Positions 23,379 through 55,434 of a stretch of 56,151 bases of DNA are shown here, in pieces. Source of the DNA: Minisyncoccota bacterium (GTDB lineage: Bacteria > Patescibacteriota > Minisyncoccia > Phycocordibacterales > UBA9973); the NCBI GenBank assembly GCA_041657445.1, contig JBBABV010000003.1:1-56151 (forward strand), in the 5' to 3' direction. The notes beneath the pieces were generated by a model, which had not been told where the DNA came from, made no database searches, and was given only the letters and a program-made list of their open reading frames with translations. The position numbers and the translations under genes were made by a program. The number at the start of each line of letters is the position of its first letter. The stretch's first letter is position 1.

Positions 23379-23426
23379 AATATCATTTATTATACATCAG
23401 GATTAAGTAAATAATAAATAGGAAAT

Positions 23427-23456
23427 AAAAAAAACACCTATAGAGGTGCTTTTTTA
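23427..23456 (-). terminator. Intrinsic terminator after the 16S trailer
   Basis: Stem CACCT (23435-23439) / AGGTG (23444-23448). On the minus strand it is followed by a run of eight T. Confidence 0.55.
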
Positions 23457-23462
23457 TAAAAT

Positions 23463-23487
23463 GCTGTTCTTTGTTTTGTTTCGTTCT
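23463..23487 (-). promoter_or_regulatory. 16S trailer half of the leader-trailer processing stem
   Basis: Complementary to 25922-25946 over 25 positions, with one G-U pair in the minus-strand RNA. This is the geometry of an RNase III processing stem. Confidence 0.7.
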
Positions 23488-23780
23488 TTGTTCTCAGTTA
23501 AGAGAACCATAACTTAAGGTCTTTCCCATTTGTCAGATTTGTTTTAGGACATTAAAATCATAGTCCATTGTACAGTCAATTGAGCTGTACAATATCGACT
23601 CAATAATCTATTTGTAAAAGGCGAACCTTTTAACAAAAAGAGATTTTCAAATTGAATTATTCCACGACCAGCTTCCGCTAGCCGTGCCTTGTTACGACTT
23701 ATTCCCTGTCACCGAGCTTACCGTAGTCCCTGCAAACGCAGAGCCTTCGGGTACTCCCGGCTCCCTTGAATTGACGGGCG

Positions 23781-24469
23781 AATGCGATTCTTAGAACATT
23801 TCGCGTTCCCACGTAGCATGCGGATTTCCCGCACTACGCGAGCCCAATAGTTTTTTTTATTCATTACTAATTTTCTTAGAAACACTTTGCAATGGATTCT
23901 TTTTGAAAATAAACATTTCCGCAGCCCAGTGTGTTTTTGATTTTCTCAAGTAATGGCTTATCTTTTTTCCTGCATTTTAATATAAAAATGCATTCTAATA
24001 CCATAACCCATTTTATAGGAGGAGGATTTCTACATTGCAACATGAAAACACCCTTCTCCGTCAGTTAATCCTACTATATAATCTTTTGATACTATTGGTT
24101 TTGTCCTTCCCATAATAATTTAAGTATAACACTAAATCAATATGGTACTACGACTCAGCTGACTTCTCGTATGCCTTGTATTTAAAGTAAATACAAATTT
24201 CCATTAACATACGAGATCTCCCACGGGTCACATATAATTCTATTCCACACATCCTGAAGATGCTTTTAAATGAATCTTCACTCTGCTCACCGCCCATTGA
24301 TTTGGTTCAGAGTTCGATTCGCATTTTTTAATTTCGGGCTATGTTTTGTTTAGAGATCCTCCGGACCAACTCCTCACGAAATTGGACCTATCTTTCAACT
24401 ACGCTCTTCTTATAAAAGAGGAGTGGATTTTAACCACTTAGTACTATATGCTGCCGGGCGCACTTATTT
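23781..24469 (-). mobile_element. Intervening sequence (intron-like) in 16S between positions equivalent to E. coli C1399 and C1400
   Basis: The conserved string GUACUCAC|CGCCCGUCA is split. Exon 1 ends at 24470 and exon 2 resumes at 23780 (ttgacgggcg). The ends are GC-rich and hairpin-rich, and the centre is AT-rich and holds the LAGLIDADG remnant. Confidence 0.8.
23876..24113 (-). pseudogene. Decayed LAGLIDADG homing-endonuclease ORF inside the 16S intervening sequence
   Basis: Hand translation from ATG at 24111-24113: MGRTKPIVSKDYIVGLTDGEGCFHVAM* (the LAGLIDADG/DGEGCF motif). It continues KSSSYKMGYGIRMHFYIKMQEKR*, and after a frame change DKPLLEKIKNTLGCGNVYFQKESIAKCF*. An in-frame stop, a frameshift and truncation are all present. 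Confidence 0.75.
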
Positions 24470-24534
24470 GTGAGTACAAGACTTGAGAACGTATTCACCG
24501 CGGTTTAGCTGACCCGCGATTACTAGCAATTCCA

Positions 24535-24571
<37 letters not shown>

Positions 24572-24968
24572 TAGGCCGCTTTTAAACGATTAGCTCAGAG
24601 TCACCTCGTCGCTGCGCGTTGTAACGGCCATTGTATTATGTGTGTAGCCCAGGGTATCAAAGGGACATGCTGACCTGGCGTCATCCTCTCCTTCCTCCCC
24701 CACCGGAAATCACAATTAAAATAATTATGAACTCTGGTGGGGGCAGTCTCGTGTGACACTTGTAACACACAATGAGGGTTGCGTTCGTTAGCCCACTTAA
24801 GGGTACAATTCAAACCACGAACTGACGACGGCCATGCATCACCTGTCCTACTGTCTTGCGAGGTCCTGACTTTCATCAGGATTTCAATAGGATTTCTAAC
24901 CCTGGTAAGGTTCTTCGTTTACCATCGAATTAAACCACATAATCCACTGCTTGTGCAAGTCCCCGTCT

Positions 24969-25000
<32 letters not shown>

Positions 25001-25501
25001 TCCCAGGCGCTTCTCTTAACGCGTTAGCTAAGGCTCTCAGAGGGTCGATACTCCGAAAACCGAGAGAAGATCGTTTAGGGCGTGGATTACTGGGGTATCT
25101 AATCCCATTCACTCCCCACGCTTTCGTGCTTCAGTGTCAAATATGCGCTAGTATACTGCTTTCGCTTTTGGTGTTCCCCATGATATCAACGGATATTACC
25201 CCTACACCATGAGTTCCGTATACCTCTCACACTTTCTAGTTTTGCCGTTTCTTTTGCGAATCCTCGGTTAAGCCGAGGGTTTTAACAAAAGACTAACAAA
25301 ACAACCTACGCACCCTTTACGCCCAATAATTCCGGATAACGCTCGAGGCTCTCGTATTACCGCTCCTGCTGGCACGAGATTAGGAGCCTCTTATTCATGA
25401 GGTACCGTCAATAAACTTCTTCCCTCATAAAAGATCTTTACATCCCAGAGGGACTTCATCAATCACGCGGCGTCGCTCCGTCAGGCTTTCGCCCATTGCG
25501 G

Positions 25502-25532
<31 letters not shown>

Positions 25533-25921
25533 ATGGTCCGTGTCTCAGTACCATCGGTGGGGGTCAGGCTCTCACCTCCCCTAGACGTCATTGCCTTGGT
25601 AGGCTATTACCCTACCAACTAGCTGATATCGCACAGGCCATTCCTCTAGCGCAACAGAAAAATCTGCTACTTTACTCTTGCGAGACCATCGTGTATTAGT
25701 TCGTCTTTCAACGAATTATTCACGACTAGAGGGGATGTTCCTATGTATTACTACCTCGTTCGCCACTAAAAAACGATCCCAATCTTTCAATCAATTCTTC
25801 TTGTATTGCTACTCAAAGTCTTTCATGCTTTCATGGGGTTTTTCCGTTCGACTTGCATGCCTTATCCACGCCGCCAGCGTTCATCCTGAGCTAGGATCAA
25901 ACTCTAACTATAAAGTTATAT

Positions 25922-51080: not shown

Positions 51081-51650
51081 TTACAAGCCCAACAATTTAT
51101 GAATAGTGACCGGATCTAATCCAAATTCTCCTCCAAGTTTCAGTGCCATGGCTAGTATGTCTGTGATACTTTTTACTGTTGATAGAGAGGATTTTAACTT
51201 TTCTAAAAACTTTCTTTCTTTTGTGCTTTCTGTATGCTTAGGCATTTCTAAGATTATTCTTTCATGTAATTCAAGTATTATATTCTGTGATTGAAATTGA
51301 TTCTGAGACTGGTGCTGATTTATGACGGTACTTGGCATGCTACTAAAAGGAACTATTTCATCTGAAAAATATTCTCCGTACAGTCGAGAAATAAGACCTC
51401 CGAGCTTTGACCTATAACTTAATAAATCAAAATATTTTCGCATTGAACGATTCCATTCGGTAGTCCTTATTACTTCTTTATATCTTGAATAATCTTTCTG
51501 AGATACTTGCTGAAGCTCATCTATCGAAGAATTAAGTTGATCAACGAGTGAGGTATCATCATAAATCCTTTCACGACCTGAAGTTGCCTCAGGTGCTTGA
51601 GAAAGATATCCTTGTAACTCACTATATATTGGTCTGATTGTATTTTTCAT
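51081..51650 (-). CDS. Hypothetical protein (first gene of a two-gene cassette)
   Basis: 189 aa with a Gln/Ser-rich linker (QHQSQNQFQSQN). GAGGAG lies 11 nt upstream of the ATG, which is unusual in this window. Confidence 0.4.
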   Translation of the reverse strand: MKNTIRPIYSELQGYLSQAPEATSGRERIYDDTSLVDQLNSSIDELQQVSQKDYSRYKEVIRTTEWNRSMRKYFDLLSYRSKLGGLISRLYGEYFSDEIVPFSSMPSTVINQHQSQNQFQSQNIILELHERIILEMPKHTESTKERKFLEKLKSSLSTVKSITDILAMALKLGGEFGLDPVTIHKLLGL

Positions 51651-51823
51651 AAATTTTAATACTCCTCGGACTCTGAACCTATCTCAAGATTGCTCATCTC
51701 TACGCTTCGGCTCGAACGTTTTTCGTAGAAAAAAAGATTAATAATTAATACGTACGCTCCACGTTCTCAATTATTTTAAACTTTTTACTACGCTCTACTA
51801 ATGTGGAATTTAAAAATGGACTC

Positions 51824-51868
51824 GGAAAATGGAAACAAATATTTTGGGGATTAGGATTTCCATTTTCC
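51824..51868 (-). promoter_or_regulatory. 12-bp perfect hairpin in the long leader of the 51081 cassette
   Basis: GGAAAATGGAAA (51824-51835) / TTTCCATTTTCC (51857-51868), with a 21-nt loop. Confidence 0.4.
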
Positions 51869-51949
51869 TCGACTCTCATCTTTTGGCGAGATTTCAAATT
51901 CTACCCGCAGGAAAAATCTTAAATCAAAATTCAAAACATTGTCTCGGGC

Positions 51950-51958
51950 ATTATACCA
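51950..51958 (-). promoter_or_regulatory. Extended -10 promoter element (TGGTATAAT)
   Basis: Minus strand reads TGGTATAAT and is followed directly by GCCCGAGAC. About 290 nt upstream of the 51650 start codon. Confidence 0.45.
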
Positions 51959-52009
51959 TTTTTCTATTTTGGTGGTTACGCAAAGTTTTTTGACATCACC
52001 CCTCGGCAT

Positions 52010-52033
52010 CCGCCTCGGGCATTTCCGCTAGGG
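52010..52033. repeat. Outer inverted repeat, left arm (24 nt perfect)
   Basis: CCGCCTCGGGCATTTCCGCTAGGG is the reverse complement of 52298-52321. T52009/A52322 extends it to 25 bp. A further 9-bp pairing joins 52037-52045 to 52272-52280. Confidence 0.9.
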
Positions 52034-52056
52034 CTACGAGTGCCTAGATTGCAGGA

Positions 52057-52125
52057 GCGGGCAAGCGAATAGTCGAACGGCTCAAATACCGGGGAAATGA
52101 GCCGTTCGACTATTCGCTTGCCCGC
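52057..52125. repeat. 28-bp perfect hairpin with a 13-nt loop
   Basis: GCGGGCAAGCGAATAGTCGAACGGCTCA (52057-52084), loop AATACCGGGGAAA, TGAGCCGTTCGACTATTCGCTTGCCCGC (52098-52125). Every position pairs. Confidence 0.9.
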
Positions 52126-52132
52126 ACTTCTT

Positions 52133-52156
52133 GGGGAGAGGAAGTTTCCTCTCCCC
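52133..52156. repeat. 10-bp perfect hairpin
   Basis: GGGGAGAGGA-AGTT-TCCTCTCCCC. Confidence 0.85.
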
Positions 52157-52161
52157 GGGTC

Positions 52162-52191
52162 GGGCTCTCCGACCAAAGTCGGAGTCTGCCC
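52162..52191. repeat. Hairpin with an internal loop
   Basis: GGGC...CTCCGAC-CAAA-GTCGGAG...GCCC. Confidence 0.7.
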
Positions 52192-52297
52192 TCGCCATCC
52201 TCACTCTACGTTTTTCAATATTATGTTTAGTGAGTAGCTTTCGCTTTCGAGAACTCATTGCAATTCGGGTCAGGCACTCGTCCGTCAGTCATGGACA

Positions 52298-52321
52298 CCC
52301 TAGCGGAAATGCCCGAGGCGG
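52298..52321. repeat. Outer inverted repeat, right arm
   Basis: CCCTAGCGGAAATGCCCGAGGCGG, perfect complement of 52010-52033. Confidence 0.9.
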
Positions 52322-52404
52322 AAAATACATGTGCTTGACCCACCCTCCCATTCGCGCACAAAACCGCCGTGAGGAAAAGAGGAGACGGCTTGCTCCCAGC
52401 AAAA

Positions 52405-52572
52405 TTACAAATCATCTTTCAGCTCAACCGCTTCTTCTTCGTCTAATCCTTCCTCGTCCATAATTTCTTTCACGTGTTCAGCTTCGTTTTGTTCTAATCC
52501 GTAATTTTCCTTTAGTTCCAAAATTTCTTCGTCAATTTCTTCTTCGTTTTCTTTTTCAAGTTCTTCGTCCAT
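52405..52572 (-). CDS. 55-aa highly acidic small protein (candidate)
   Basis: Hand translation: MDEELEKENEEEIDEEILELKENYGLEQNEAEHVKEIMDEEGLDEEEAVELKDDL*. The ATG begins 2 nt after the stop of the wHTH ORF. Below the ORF-track length cutoff. Confidence 0.5.
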   Translation of the reverse strand: MDEELEKENEEEIDEEILELKENYGLEQNEAEHVKEIMDEEGLDEEEAVELKDDL

Positions 52573-52574
52573 TT

Positions 52575-52982
52575 TTATATTTTAGAATAAAAAACCGAAT
52601 GCCCAGTTTTTCCGGTTTGCTTGATTCTATTTTCTTTTTCTAATTGTGAGAGATACCGAGTTGCGGTTGCATCTGAAACATGAAGAAACTTTTCCACTTC
52701 GTCGTTAGTGATTTTAGATTGTTTTAGAAACATTGCCATAACTTTATCCAACTTTTTCCTTTTCCGAAATTGAATTGCATTTTTTGCTTTCTCTAACAAT
52801 TCGCGAATTGAATTTTTTGGTGGAATGATTGCGGGAGTTGGAGCAGAAACCGGTTCGGGTTTGATCGGCTCAGGTTCGGGAACTAACGGCTCATTTGGTG
52901 GGATTTGAGCCGTTTCCTTGTCCGCCTGAATGTTTTTGCTTTCGGCAGAGGGTTCGGCACTTCCACGGGCTCGGGGACAGGT
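52575..52982 (-). CDS. C-terminal winged-helix (DeoR-type HTH) part of a frameshifted gene
   Basis: The listed ORF 52575-52799 starts at TTG. The frame stays open upstream to 52982 and reads ...SAEPSAESKNIQADKETAQIPPNEPLVPEPEPIKPEPVSAPTPAIIPPKNSIRELLEKAKN.... HTH: ITNDEVEKFLHVSDATATRYLSQLEKENRI. Confidence 0.55.
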   Translation of the reverse strand, partial: TCPRARGSAEPSAESKNIQADKETAQIPPNEPLVPEPEPIKPEPVSAPTPAIIPPKNSIRELLEKAKNAIQFRKRKKLDKVMAMFLKQSKITNDEVEKFLHVSDATATRYLSQLEKENRIKQTGKTGHSVFYSKI

Positions 52983-53233
52983 TCATTTTGGGCTTGTTTT
53001 TCCTCAATTTTCAGTTCTTTTTCTGACTCCGTAGGGGTAGGATTTGAGAGTGGTATATCATTACTTTTCACTGAAAAGTCGTTCCCGGGGGCTTCTAGGG
53101 CCTCAGGGGGCATAACGGAGGGTTCAGAATATGCTGTATTTTCAAGGGTAGGCTCGGTGGGCTCTTGGGGGGTTGGTGGAATAGGGTTTTCTTCGGGAAT
53201 TGGGTTTTGAGTTGTATTTGGGTAGTCTGACAT
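52883..53233 (-). CDS. Pro/Glu-rich N-terminal part of the same frameshifted gene
   Basis: 116 aa. The composition is natural up to ...PVEVPNPLPKAK, then turns into an out-of-character basic tail TFRRTRKRLKSHQMSR*. Overlaps the wHTH frame by 100 nt. Confidence 0.5.
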   Translation of the reverse strand: MSDYPNTTQNPIPEENPIPPTPQEPTEPTLENTAYSEPSVMPPEALEAPGNDFSVKSNDIPLSNPTPTESEKELKIEEKQAQNEPVPEPVEVPNPLPKAKTFRRTRKRLKSHQMSR

Positions 53234-53274: not shown

Positions 53275-55434
53275 TTAAGACTTTTTAACTTTTTTATACT
53301 TAAAACACAAAGTCCTGTAAGGCAATACGTAATGTATTTTAGTTAATTTTTTTGCTAAACTTTTAACCCGATCTTTGGATTTTAAATTAATTTCTTTTTC
53401 TTTTACACAAGCAATAATGACTTCCGATAAAATTTGCAAGTCTTTATTTTTTAACCCCAATCTACATAATTCTTGTACTCCAAATCTAAGACCGCTTCTG
53501 TTTTTTGAAGGTATTCTCATTGGCAAAGTAATTATGCCTATAGAAGCTAATTTTTGAGTAATTTGCACTATATTCGGGACATCTATACAAATTTGATGAG
53601 TATTTGTTAAATTAGGTAACGGGCCAACGACATTTAATTCTTTATTTAAAAGATTTGCAAAAAGTTCTGTTTTTTTCAAAATATCTTTTGCATATTTTAT
53701 ACCGAATTTTTCCATTTCAAGCACAGCAATAAGCAATGCCAACAAACTACCAGTGTGAACACTTGAAGTGTTTTTAACAAATTCTGAATCAACTAAATTA
53801 TAAAGTTTTTTGTTATTTAATAATACAATCGATTTTTGAGGACCAGGAAAAGTTTTATGGGTACTACCTCCAAAAAAGAAATTTTGTGATTTGGGAAATT
53901 TAAAAATATGAGTAAAGTAAAATAGTTGTAGGTGTGAAATATCGTAATAAACGATCCATGTTTGTGGAATATTTTTTATTAGTTTTTCTATGTTTAATGG
54001 ATTAATTGATACTGTATGATCTAAATAAATAAAAACTTTTTCTTCTTTCCATTTTTTAACAATCCTAATAAGATCTTTGTAATTCAAATCCCAGGTATTA
54101 AAATCAAGATTTAAGGTTTCAACTTCAAAACCATGTTTTAAGGCGATACCTTTAGTTTTACTATGTCCTCCACTTTGTATGTTCAAAATAATAATTTTAT
54201 TAGCAATCTTACTAATTGCGGACATAATGATGTCCATATTGTGAATTCCGGAGAATCCTTTAGTAATAGAAAATTCAACACCATAAATTGAACAGAGTTT
54301 ATGCTCTAAAATTGCAATAATTTTCCCTAAATTTTCTCTCCCTGGCATAAAATATCTTGACCCAATTTTAGATTTTATTACATAGCGATTATTACTTTTT
54401 AAAGTATATGCACTTGAGGCTAATTCGCTCATTACGTTTTCTGAAGGAATTAGAGAAATTGTGTTAGATTCTTTGTCAACCTCATCTGAGATTAAATTTA
54501 TTATTTTTTTGTCAGATAATTTTTCGTATTTTTTACTAGATTTATTTATCTTATCGTTACTGATATTGTTATTCTTTTTTATTTTAACTAATGCTAAGAA
54601 GTTCCAAAATTTAGGCCATGATTTATTTACAGAACTAGGATTTTTAAAAACTAGTTTTTTGTTATTAATTACTCCCCACATTGCAAGCGCTTGTACAACC
54701 CTATGATCTTTTGAAGTTATGTTGCCAGTATCCTCAGCCTCTTTTATGGCAGATTCCATTTCTTGTATTCTATTTGTTTCATGTCCAATTAAACTTGGCC
54801 AGAATTTTTCACCATTTTCTTTGTTTATAAAATTAAAAACCCTGGCAAAACAATAATCATCTGAACATAAGGGTGCGTAATTTGACTCTTTATTATTTAA
54901 TAGATCATAAAAAGCATGGGCTTGCCTTTCAATTGTCCCGTCGTATTTTGGTTCCCAACATAAGCCTTTTTGGCGACATGTTTGCCAATGTTCAACTGCA
55001 TCATATGTTTCTTTTAGTTTTTGTGGCGGATTAACTAACCTTTCTTTGTCTCCACATATTACTGTAGCAGTAGCCCATTGAGTCGTTTCATTATCGAGTT
55101 TTAAAAGTTTATTTTGATTAAAATTTATAATATTAGGATTGTTGGTAATTGATCTATTTTTCAAACTTCCTTCTTTTAGAAAAGTTTTATTAAGCTTGAA
55201 TTTCCAAGACGCAAATTGAAGAAGTCTATATAATGTTGCTGACTCCCCAACATTTATATCCTGATTATTTTGCCACGCTATACTTGCGTTTTTTATTGCT
55301 AAAATATCATCGTTGATGTCTTCTTGATTATCAATAAATTTTTCAATGTCAGTATAACCATTAATAATATCTAAAACACCAATTCTTGTGAGCCAAGATT
55401 TATCTAATGGTATAAATTTATCGAATTTTTTCAT
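53275..55434 (-). CDS. Fusion protein: N-terminal reduced EPSP-synthase/MurA-like domain plus C-terminal SHMT-like PLP-dependent domain
   Basis: N-terminal part: IPLDKSWLTRIGVLDIING (compare PGDKSISHRALLLAAL), VGESATLYRLLQFAS (compare G.SGT..R.L), KDHRVVQALAMWGV (compare DDHRIAM..A.AGL). C-terminal part: LIPSENVMS (compare ASENF.S), GGHSKT (compare GGHLTHG), YYDISHL (compare DMAH), GGSTHKTFPGP (compare TTTHKTLRGP, PLP lysine), SGLRFGVQELCRLG. Confidence 0.65.
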   Translation of the reverse strand: MKKFDKFIPLDKSWLTRIGVLDIINGYTDIEKFIDNQEDINDDILAIKNASIAWQNNQDINVGESATLYRLLQFASWKFKLNKTFLKEGSLKNRSITNNPNIINFNQNKLLKLDNETTQWATATVICGDKERLVNPPQKLKETYDAVEHWQTCRQKGLCWEPKYDGTIERQAHAFYDLLNNKESNYAPLCSDDYCFARVFNFINKENGEKFWPSLIGHETNRIQEMESAIKEAEDTGNITSKDHRVVQALAMWGVINNKKLVFKNPSSVNKSWPKFWNFLALVKIKKNNNISNDKINKSSKKYEKLSDKKIINLISDEVDKESNTISLIPSENVMSELASSAYTLKSNNRYVIKSKIGSRYFMPGRENLGKIIAILEHKLCSIYGVEFSITKGFSGIHNMDIIMSAISKIANKIIILNIQSGGHSKTKGIALKHGFEVETLNLDFNTWDLNYKDLIRIVKKWKEEKVFIYLDHTVSINPLNIEKLIKNIPQTWIVYYDISHLQLFYFTHIFKFPKSQNFFFGGSTHKTFPGPQKSIVLLNNKKLYNLVDSEFVKNTSSVHTGSLLALLIAVLEMEKFGIKYAKDILKKTELFANLLNKELNVVGPLPNLTNTHQICIDVPNIVQITQKLASIGIITLPMRIPSKNRSGLRFGVQELCRLGLKNKDLQILSEVIIACVKEKEINLKSKDRVKSLAKKLTKIHYVLPYRTLCFKYKKVKKS

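Follow-up and report, generated by a model that had tools for sequence, protein, structure and literature searches.

Few bacterial RNAs combine a length above 300 nt with a complex conserved fold, and those of solved function are ribozymes or the cores of major RNA-protein machines. The described systems nearest to the element treated here are the orphan large structured RNAs OLE, which is linked to dedicated Oap proteins, ROOL, GOLLD and raiA. Further systems to be compared are the retron msr-msd, typically three to four times shorter than the element, the Correia, REP and ERIC repeats, which are similar to miniature inverted-repeat transposable elements (MITEs), give transcripts that fold into substrates of RNase III, measure 35-160 bp, carry target-site duplications and reach copy numbers of tens to hundreds with near identity, and the integron attC site, an imperfect palindrome of 57-141 bp that follows cassette open reading frames (ORFs) in tandem arrays next to intI. 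Our element is about 400 nt long and lies in contig JBBABV010000003.1 of a Minisyncoccota bacterium (assembly GCA_041657445.1), of which the 56,151 nt from the first position onwards were analysed (the window; coordinates are window positions, and the minus strand, from about 52397 to 51990, is taken as the sense strand of the element). It shares with OLE, ROOL, GOLLD and raiA a length above 300 nt, a multi-branched fold, the position as a G+C-rich island in an A+T-rich genome, conserved loops, covarying stems, the restriction to one lineage and a function that cannot be deduced from sequence. In kind it is closest to these orphan RNAs, and it is set apart from them by its copy number (two to four diverged copies per small genome), by a sequence-invariant closing helix of 25 bp, by stems almost free of G-U pairs and by its putative partner, a winged-helix protein whose tail is acidic and disordered; their Rfam models gave no match. 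On sequence evidence, we assign a probability of roughly 55% to the element being a stable structured non-coding RNA that is encoded on the minus strand and works with the winged-helix protein. The facts that agree with it are the position in a G+C island, loops that are conserved although their stems covary, an upstream gene running in the same direction, the better folding of the sense strand in most copies and the linkage to the winged-helix gene.

At 52000-52199 the G+C content is 0.61 compared to 0.32 over the whole window, in agreement with the GC-rich island claimed by an earlier sequence-only reading of this DNA, and is comparable to stretches of the 16S gene in the same window, which reach up to 0.52-0.60. 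Folding of the minus strand led to an energy of -219.8 kcal/mol (mean of dinucleotide shuffles -145.9; z = -10.7) and folding of the plus strand to -216 kcal/mol (shuffle mean -135.5; z = -13.6), and none of 100 shuffles was as stable as the element. All helices proposed before were recovered by a repeat search and by direct reading of the sequence, with small corrections of two lengths: the hairpin at 52133-52156 has 11 bp instead of 10, and the inner helix 10 bp instead of 9. Both GAAA loops of the minus strand, the extended -10 promoter-like box and the acidic mini-ORF beside the element, which is 55 amino acids (aa) long with its stop at 52405 on the minus strand, could likewise be located, and the proposed boundaries proved nearly exact, the 5' edge of the family being a GGGAG at 52397. 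The window holds one copy of the element. As the contig L001 from an independent Logan assembly is 100% identical over the covered part (51640-52156, where the contig stops inside the element), the element is no assembly chimera, and the homologues, at least about 165 in number, remove the earlier thought of a one-off artefact.

Homologues were first found on contigs encoding relatives of a 74-aa winged-helix ORF, where a similar GC-rich block lies downstream of the gene; the block of locus L019 is 71% identical to the window element over 374 nt. When the species-representative GTDB genomes were scanned with a 16-nt block of the closing helix P1, 97 stretches were obtained, about 50 of which carry the whole element according to nhmmer, nearly all of them in metagenome-assembled genomes (MAGs) of Paceibacterota/Nomurabacteria. 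A second scan, of metagenomes with the GGGGAGAGGA hairpin pattern, is reported here for the matches listed (120 loci), 114 of which carry the element, so that there are at least 114 metagenome copies and in total at least about 165 homologous copies from Paceibacteria/Nomurabacteria-type genomes and metagenomes. The copies were recovered with two independent sequence patterns and confirmed by nhmmer. Individual genomes have two to four diverged copies: an 813-kb contig carries them near 15.7, 355.6 and 406.5 kb and, near 343 kb, a winged-helix gene followed by the 5' leader of the element only, and other MAGs have two or three copies each. Two subfamilies could be distinguished, A (the window type) and B (in which about 60 nt of GC-rich sequence are inserted), which can share one genome. 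The search for homologues thus ended with a few-copy, diverged family that has compensatory changes and not with dozens of near-identical copies, and the diverged homologues in many Paceibacteria lineages contradict the suggestion that the element is young. As nothing on such a family in Patescibacteria or Parcubacteria was found in full-text literature searches, the element is, judged from its sequence, one copy of a conserved and hitherto undescribed family whose structured members measure about 400 nt and occur in Paceibacteria-type bacteria of the candidate phyla radiation (CPR). With the usually linked gene it takes up about 1.5 kb or more per locus, and that minimal CPR genomes keep two to four copies argues for a real function.

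Many contigs end inside or at the element (L001, L013-L017, L044-L046, L059, L073, L083, L086, L090, L102 and others), and for this reason it is probably under-represented in binned genomes. Such breaks would be expected of a sequence that is present in several copies and differs little among paralogues and among co-occurring species. No match was obtained in phage and plasmid collections by blastn in distant mode; of two pattern scans of viral contigs one gave no match and the other four, all of which arose by chance in GC-rich contigs that lack the element.

Base pairing within the family was analysed for the two hairpins with UAAU/UACU loops. Of their distinct stem sequences, 35 of 39 (at least 5 bp) and 47 of 47 fold. 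In the pair count, which comprises 47 distinct 20-nt windows, leaves out 13 of 60 regex captures as out-of-register or false and is not corrected for phylogeny, 96.5% of the cells are paired compared to 60.0% in shuffles, and changes on both sides occur in 145 cells compared to 38.5. The covariation score was 0.976 (shuffles 0.233), a value reached by 0 of 500 shuffles, with slid controls at 0.30 or below. Base pairs are maintained by compensatory changes beyond chance, which is the generic criterion for a structured RNA. Among the copies, that of the window is the most stable (-184 kcal/mol compared to about -150 in the others). A search for pseudoknots by mutual information was dominated by the subfamily signal and gave, beyond the known helices, one weak candidate (model columns 310-364, 75% canonical).

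The anatomy deduced from the window copy is summarised in Table 1. Conservation begins at (A)GGGAG(U/C) in 30 other loci, regardless of the upstream gene, and 5' inserts comparable to that of the window are found in L132, L147, L160, L196, L206 and L208, with most other copies lacking them. The P0 stem varies in a compensatory manner (CGUGC/GCACG, UGCAC/GUGCA, GUGUG/CACAC) while its loop retains the G-rich consensus GCGAAYGGGWGGGUGGG, and most copies have an additional G-UAAU-C hairpin inserted at P0. No block of the family is conserved more strongly than P1, in which one pair is C-G in one subfamily and A-U in the other (23 and 12 sequences, respectively). The hairpin between P1 and P2 has the conserved form GUCCAUGACUAAAGGAC in subfamily A and GUC-UGGGCUAAA-GAC in subfamily B; within P2 one pair alternates between U-A and C-G (19 and 16 sequences; among 116 copies, 70 C-G and 39 U-A). 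In the mini-hairpin, whose core is of the GCGAAAGC type, C124, A127, A128 and G129 are invariant in 36 sequences and their neighbours at least 90% conserved. The blocks UAAAC, UGAAAA and GGGG(A/U)U(G)GCG of the A-rich segment are retained in both subfamilies. The loop of the hairpin at 52162-52191 is UUUG in the window and UAAU or UACU in most copies. Of the long hairpin, the family conserves the 13-nt loop and the 10 bp at its apex; perfect pairing of the 18 bp below is confined to the window. The part GGAUGCCGAGGGUG of the 3' tail is at least 90% conserved, and the 3' end of the core is likely near 51991-52008. An all-against-all comparison of 41 loci placed the core common to all copies at about -50 to +310 of the P1 anchor, with similarity fading about 310-350 nt after the anchor; outside P1, conserved sequence reaches about 75-100 nt further on the upstream side, as far as GGGAG, and 20 nt or more on the downstream side. 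The following non-coding block, termed part 2, continues in two alternative ways among the loci after GAGACAAUG, and its hairpin shows the compensatory variants GGAAAAGCGGAA, GGUUUUGCGAA and GGCAGGGCGAA around a conserved loop AUCCUAAUCCCCAAAAUAUUUG. The sequence patterns used to count part 2 motifs were too strict to be informative.

Table 1. Features of the element and its surroundings in the window, with loci of two downstream features. Inverted repeats assigned to the repeat search of the window are 100% complementary.
Feature	Position or loci	Strand	Remarks
Winged-helix gene	52575-53233	minus	acidic P/E-rich disordered N-terminus and C-terminal winged helix
Very acidic ORF, MDEELEKENEEEIDEE...	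52405-52572	minus	55 aa; between winged-helix gene and element
5' edge GGGAGC	52392-52397	minus	AU-rich sequence before it; 8 nt past the stop of the acidic ORF
Optional insert hairpin GCCG...CGGC	52364-52389	minus	pyrimidine-rich loop; some copies only; predicted fold
P0 stem UGUGC/GCACA	52330-52360	minus	closes conserved G-rich loop GCGAAUGGGAGGGUGGGUCAA
P1 5' arm	52298-52322	minus	25-bp closing helix; fully complementary to 52009-52033
Short hairpin GUCC-AUGACUGAC-GGAC	52280-52297	minus	between P1 and P2
P2 5' arm	52272-52281	minus	10 bp; pairs with 52036-52045
Two GAAA loops	52237-52250	minus	within UCGAAAGCGAAAGCU; read directly from sequence
Mini-hairpin AGCGAAAGCU	52237-52246	minus	nearly invariant; GAAA loop
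A-rich segment, ...CUAAACAUAAUAUUGAAAAACGUAGAGUGAGGAUGGCGAGG	52192-52236	minus	conserved; mostly unpaired
Hairpin GGGC-AGA-CUCCGAC-UUUG-GUCGGAG-A-GCCC	52162-52191	minus	
CTCCGAC / GTCGGAG hairpin	52166-52172 / 52178-52184		read directly from sequence
11-bp hairpin GGGGAGAGGAA / UUCCUCUCCCC	52133-52156	minus	nearly invariant across the family; pattern of the metagenome scan (114 of 120 loci listed)
Arms of this short hairpin	52133-52143 / 52146-52156		11 nt; repeat search
Long hairpin	52057-52125	minus	apical 10 bp GAACGGCUCA/UGAGCCGUUC at 52075-52084 / 52098-52107
Arms of the long hairpin	52057-52084 / 52098-52125		28 nt, 13-nt loop; repeat search
P2 3' arm	52036-52045	minus	
Second inverted repeat	52036-52045 / 52272-52281		10 nt; repeat search
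P1 3' arm	52009-52033	minus	
Outer inverted repeat	52009-52033 / 52298-52322		25 nt; repeat search
3' tail GGAUGCCGAGGGGUGAUGUC	51991-52008	minus	conserved
Part 2, downstream non-coding block	about 51990-51690	minus	conserved within subgroups only, mosaic between them
Extended -10-like box TGGTATAAT	51950-51958	minus	part 2
AAUGCCCGAG	51943-51952	minus	part 2; second complement of P1 5' arm
Part 2 hairpin	51824-51835 / 51857-51868	minus	
Gene pair, 189 aa and 154 aa	50602-51650	minus	directly downstream; no Pfam or PADLOC family
Loci with downstream serine recombinase	L119, L161, L173, L178, L200, L201, L210, L217, L223, L230		
Loci with tRNA-Thr(CGU)	L178, L210, L151, L057, L186, L108, L191		L191 about 2 kb away

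None of the known RNA classes accounts for this anatomy. At the gathering threshold Rfam recognised only 16S in the whole window and nothing on the element, and with E<=10 the region 51700-52650 gave only chance matches to miRNA and snoRNA families. Homologous loci (13 at the gathering threshold; L012, L013 and L019 at E<=1) were also free of matches on the element, so that the earlier impression that no known RNA fits now extends to Rfam, for the window and 16 homologous loci. The Rfam 15 gathering threshold was not reached for any family, including RNase P, tmRNA, SRP, 6S, OLE, ROOL, GOLLD, HEARO, raiA and group I/II introns. ARAGORN detected neither tRNA nor tmRNA in the window, and a tmRNA was rejected from the absence of this match, the 25-bp closing helix and the lack of a T-loop. 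An integron attC site was also considered and rejected, as the element measures about 400 nt, no locus has a second copy on the same strand, and a tyrosine integrase is not conserved nearby.

The nearest upstream ORF is co-oriented with the element in 119 of 132 loci at a median gap of 57 nt, and the nearest downstream ORF in 42 of 67 loci. A winged-helix gene lies upstream in the same orientation in about 40 of 50 genome loci and in 52-56 of the 98 listed element-bearing metagenome loci (out of 114) that have at least 400 nt of upstream sequence, i.e. in about 55-80%. That the element always follows this gene was true for the first loci, which had been selected by P1, and was given up since about 40% of the listed metagenome copies lie behind other genes; these encode LeuRS, a P-type ATPase, methyltransferases or reverse transcriptase (RT) and Avd of the type found in diversity-generating retroelements (DGR), and at some of these loci about 20 nt from the end of the winged-helix gene are left. 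In the window the gene is split by a frameshift into ORFs of 116 aa (52883-53233) and 74 aa (52575-52799); the gene could be a pseudogene, the frameshift could be an error of sequencing, or translation could begin at an internal TTG. About 35 other loci have the gene undivided, as one ORF of some 170-300 aa. The protein has a conserved N-terminus (MPDDQNTTQNPI...), followed by the long acidic disordered region, and a C-terminal winged helix with 62-84% identity to the window copy in aligned homologues (64-91% in tblastn) and a nearly invariant recognition helix. Pfam and PADLOC gave only generic winged-helix matches among the window neighbours. The best neighbour of the winged helix (AlphaFold2 (AF2) model with pLDDT 89), in structure as well as in sequence, was eS25, an rRNA-binding winged-helix ribosomal protein of archaea and eukaryotes, with weak scores (Foldseek E 1.6e-3, TM score 0.6-0.72; Pfam E 1.2e-3, below the cut-off; phmmer against the PDB E 0.01) and mixed with MarR/ArsR regulators and Z-alpha domains. 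The acidic ORF between this gene and the element has tblastn matches at the same place in L046, L049, L052, L098, L161, L200 and L207, is absent from most loci and belongs to no Pfam or PADLOC family.

If the element acts as a structured RNA, it would be transcribed in the same direction as the upstream gene, either by read-through or from an own promoter in the AU-rich stretch before GGGAG. P1 and P2 would then clamp a multi-branched core displaying the conserved loops, i.e. the two G-UAAU-C loops of most copies, the GAAA loop, the 13-nt apical loop and the G-rich loop of P0. These loops may serve as docking sites for a partner, most probably the acidic-tailed winged-helix protein encoded upstream, which would make the two an RNA-protein pair, and the long perfect P1 duplex may be a processing site of the RNase III type from which the core is released. 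It would be a rather doubtful step further to regard the element and the eS25-like protein as a Paceibacteria-specific ribonucleoprotein with several paralogous pairs per genome and a task of its own; if true, this would be a new class of large functional bacterial RNA, acting for example on the ribosome or on nucleic acids.

Several observations weigh against a structured RNA and its proposed partner. G-U pairs make up only 9 of 376 cells (2.4%) in the count of the UAAU/UACU hairpins, the stems thus being almost purely Watson-Crick, and the ratios of G-U to A-C in family stems (9:6 and 33:31) reveal no excess of G-U, whereas 47 tRNAs of the same loci have G-U in 52 of 1015 pairs (5.1%) and no A-C, although the stem rules of ARAGORN may hide mismatches. 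Because G-U is about as frequent as A-C, the usual RNA signature of tolerated G-U and purged A-C is missing, which is the weightiest objection to a plain RNA reading. In 28 of 31 copies the sense strand has the lower folding energy, with a mean difference of 6.5 kcal/mol to the antisense strand, but this gap may simply reflect its richness in G, and the kinship of the copies is uncorrected. With its sequence conserved on both arms, P1 could also be the target of a protein that binds double-stranded DNA. Neither a terminator behind the element nor a U-tract behind any of its hairpins is present. The similarity to eS25 remains below every significance cut-off with the DNA-binding MarR/ArsR proteins nearly equal, and the other upstream genes of about 40% of the listed metagenome copies indicate that the winged-helix gene is not obligatory in cis. 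RNAalifold had at first appeared to supply G-U evidence for the strand, which was discarded, as the 14 'U-G' cells in P1 turned out to be the bulged U of subfamily B.

This purity of the stems (93-96% Watson-Crick, with G-U about equal to A-C, unlike the tRNAs) is also the first argument for a DNA-level element, whose hairpins would act in single-stranded or cruciform DNA during recombination, priming or as a single-stranded DNA promoter, or which would form an operator array for the winged-helix protein, with template switching keeping the palindromes perfect. The second argument comes from the long hairpin, the longest perfect stem of which has 28 bp in the window compared to a median of 10 and a next longest of 19 bp in 89 copies. 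In the near-identical copy of L049 the 3' half of the lower stem differs by a single base, and its 5' half is different, which suggests that an imperfect stem was rewritten in the window into a perfect palindrome, as would be the effect of intrastrand template switching. The earlier suspicion of a DNA-level element, raised by over-perfect stems, finds partial support in both observations. In addition, the GCGAAAGC mini-hairpin is reportedly (Hirao et al.) an unusually stable DNA mini-hairpin at phage origins, boxes resembling ATGCC(C)GAG (ATGCCCGAG) recur four to six times, once inverted and once overlapping the downstream -10 box, many contigs break inside the element, and a large serine recombinase ORF, present in 13 of the 114 listed metagenome loci, lies 0.2-2 kb downstream of the element in 10 of the 13. 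The element resembles initiation signals and promoters of single-stranded DNA (sso of rolling-circle plasmids, Frpo of the F plasmid and the origin of phage G4), non-coding blocks of about 150-350 nt with near-perfect hairpins, dependence on orientation, a mini-hairpin of this type and co-oriented island genes after the block. It differs from them in being chromosomal and partly syntenic (an SHMT gene is near the element in the window and in L013), without match in the plasmid, phage and viral collections searched, in having no Rep or relaxase nearby and no consistent companion relaxase, Rep or transposase, and in the absence of a recognisable -35/-10 pair inside the stems. Moreover, the element points the same way as the upstream gene in 90% of loci, the breaks are equally explained by a multi-copy conserved sequence, and the stems of the variable hairpins, being unconserved in sequence, cannot be operators for a protein with a nearly invariant recognition helix. 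We therefore consider action at the DNA level unlikely, yet the nearly G-U-free stems raise the question whether selection acts on RNA, on DNA, or whether the palindromes are kept up by a mutational mechanism.

The remaining explanations fit fewer facts. The co-oriented upstream genes at short distance, mutually unrelated as they are, would also be expected for a cis-acting 3'-end module that stabilises or terminates the upstream transcript or acts as an insulator, with part 2 as an outward extended -10 promoter. TGGTATAAT or TGATATGAT is indeed found about 50 nt past P1 in 38 of 66 copies, and the downstream genes are variable and of the island type. However, 400 nt with invariant loops far exceed the needs of a terminator or stabiliser, the missing U-tracts speak against termination, 25 of 67 loci have a downstream gene that runs towards the element, and only two to four genes per genome would be served, which makes such a module improbable. 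The Correia, REP and ERIC repeats resemble the element in lying between genes just past an ORF, in terminal repeats that would form a long RNA duplex, in an outward promoter-like box and in being multicopy, and a foldback MITE had been proposed from the sequence; in such a non-autonomous mobile element P1 would serve as terminal inverted repeats. The 25-bp perfect repeats about 265 bp apart, the several copies per genome behind unrelated genes and P1 as the best conserved part would agree with this, but the element has 400 nt, only two to four copies per genome from diverged subfamilies, internal domains with conserved loops under structural constraint and conservation that extends past the repeats on both sides; no transposase is nearby and the flanks GGCA and AAAT of the window copy, inspected by eye, show no target-site duplication, so that a MITE is quite improbable.

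Least probable is a retron msr-msd, DGR RNA or other template or guide RNA with its enzyme encoded elsewhere: the closing inverted repeats, the short hairpins followed by one long near-perfect hairpin on the minus strand and the defence-type surroundings give a compatible geometry, and Watson-Crick-pure stems suit a product copied into DNA, but RT, IscB/TnpB, Cas and IS110-type genes are not among the conserved neighbours in genome or listed metagenome loci (nor is a relaxase), an RT-like ORF lies within about 2 kb upstream in only 5 of the 98 listed metagenome loci and is thus not adjacent in more than 90% of them, the sequence is conserved across genera, and HEARO, group II intron and other guide or retroelement families of Rfam gave no match. 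The retron and the MITE each fail a defining feature that was tested. Of the earlier statement that the window lacks RT, IscB/TnpB and Cas genes, the part on RT agrees with tblastn, in which five RT-like ORFs, and likewise five serine-recombinase ORFs, from related loci found no match in the window. The five loci in question are L147 and L151, where DGR-type RT ORFs (YxDD) end 188 and 761 nt upstream, respectively, each with an Avd-like four-helix ORF (which in L151 ends 40 nt upstream of the element), L174, where an RT-like ORF ends 42 nt upstream, and L183 and L192; their RT ORFs may be a coincidence of island-rich neighbourhoods.

Downstream of the element the regions vary across loci and often carry restriction-modification (R-M) or defence genes. 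The 189-aa protein encoded there in the window has more than 250 homologues in many phyla, which occur beside methyltransferase or restriction-like, HATPase/Ymh and ABC-ATPase genes, and may be a defence-island protein; synteny via this protein was discarded as a guide, as its neighbourhoods, resembling R-M and abortive infection (Abi) systems in many phyla, lack the element. Genome and metagenome loci for which the sequence downstream exceeds 1.5 kb number 55; a tRNA-Thr(CGU) in the orientation of the element follows it at 250-1000 nt in seven of them and at about 2 kb in an eighth. Together with the serine recombinases, these tRNA genes may mark an integration hotspot behind the element; ATGCCCGAGACAATG, sought as a second att-like copy, occurred once in the window. 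Since the element marks gathering points of defence and mobile islands, serine recombinases and tRNA-Thr, it can be used as a landmark for variable regions. On the other side of the winged-helix gene, a 719-aa ORF (53275-55434, minus strand) combines a C-terminal SHMT-like domain (Pfam E 7e-13) with a weak N-terminal match to EPSP synthase, and SHMT in the relative L013 is a stand-alone protein of 417 aa.

In the 56-kb window as a whole, Rfam and ARAGORN detected neither 23S nor tRNA genes. The 16S gene (24417-25912) is directly followed by about 1 kb on the minus strand (23379-24416) without an ORF of at least 70 aa; this stretch contains a G+C island at 23637-23862 and, at 24103-24197, a near-threshold Rfam match to group-II-D1D4-1 (32.7 bits compared to a gathering threshold of 35; E 0.0011).

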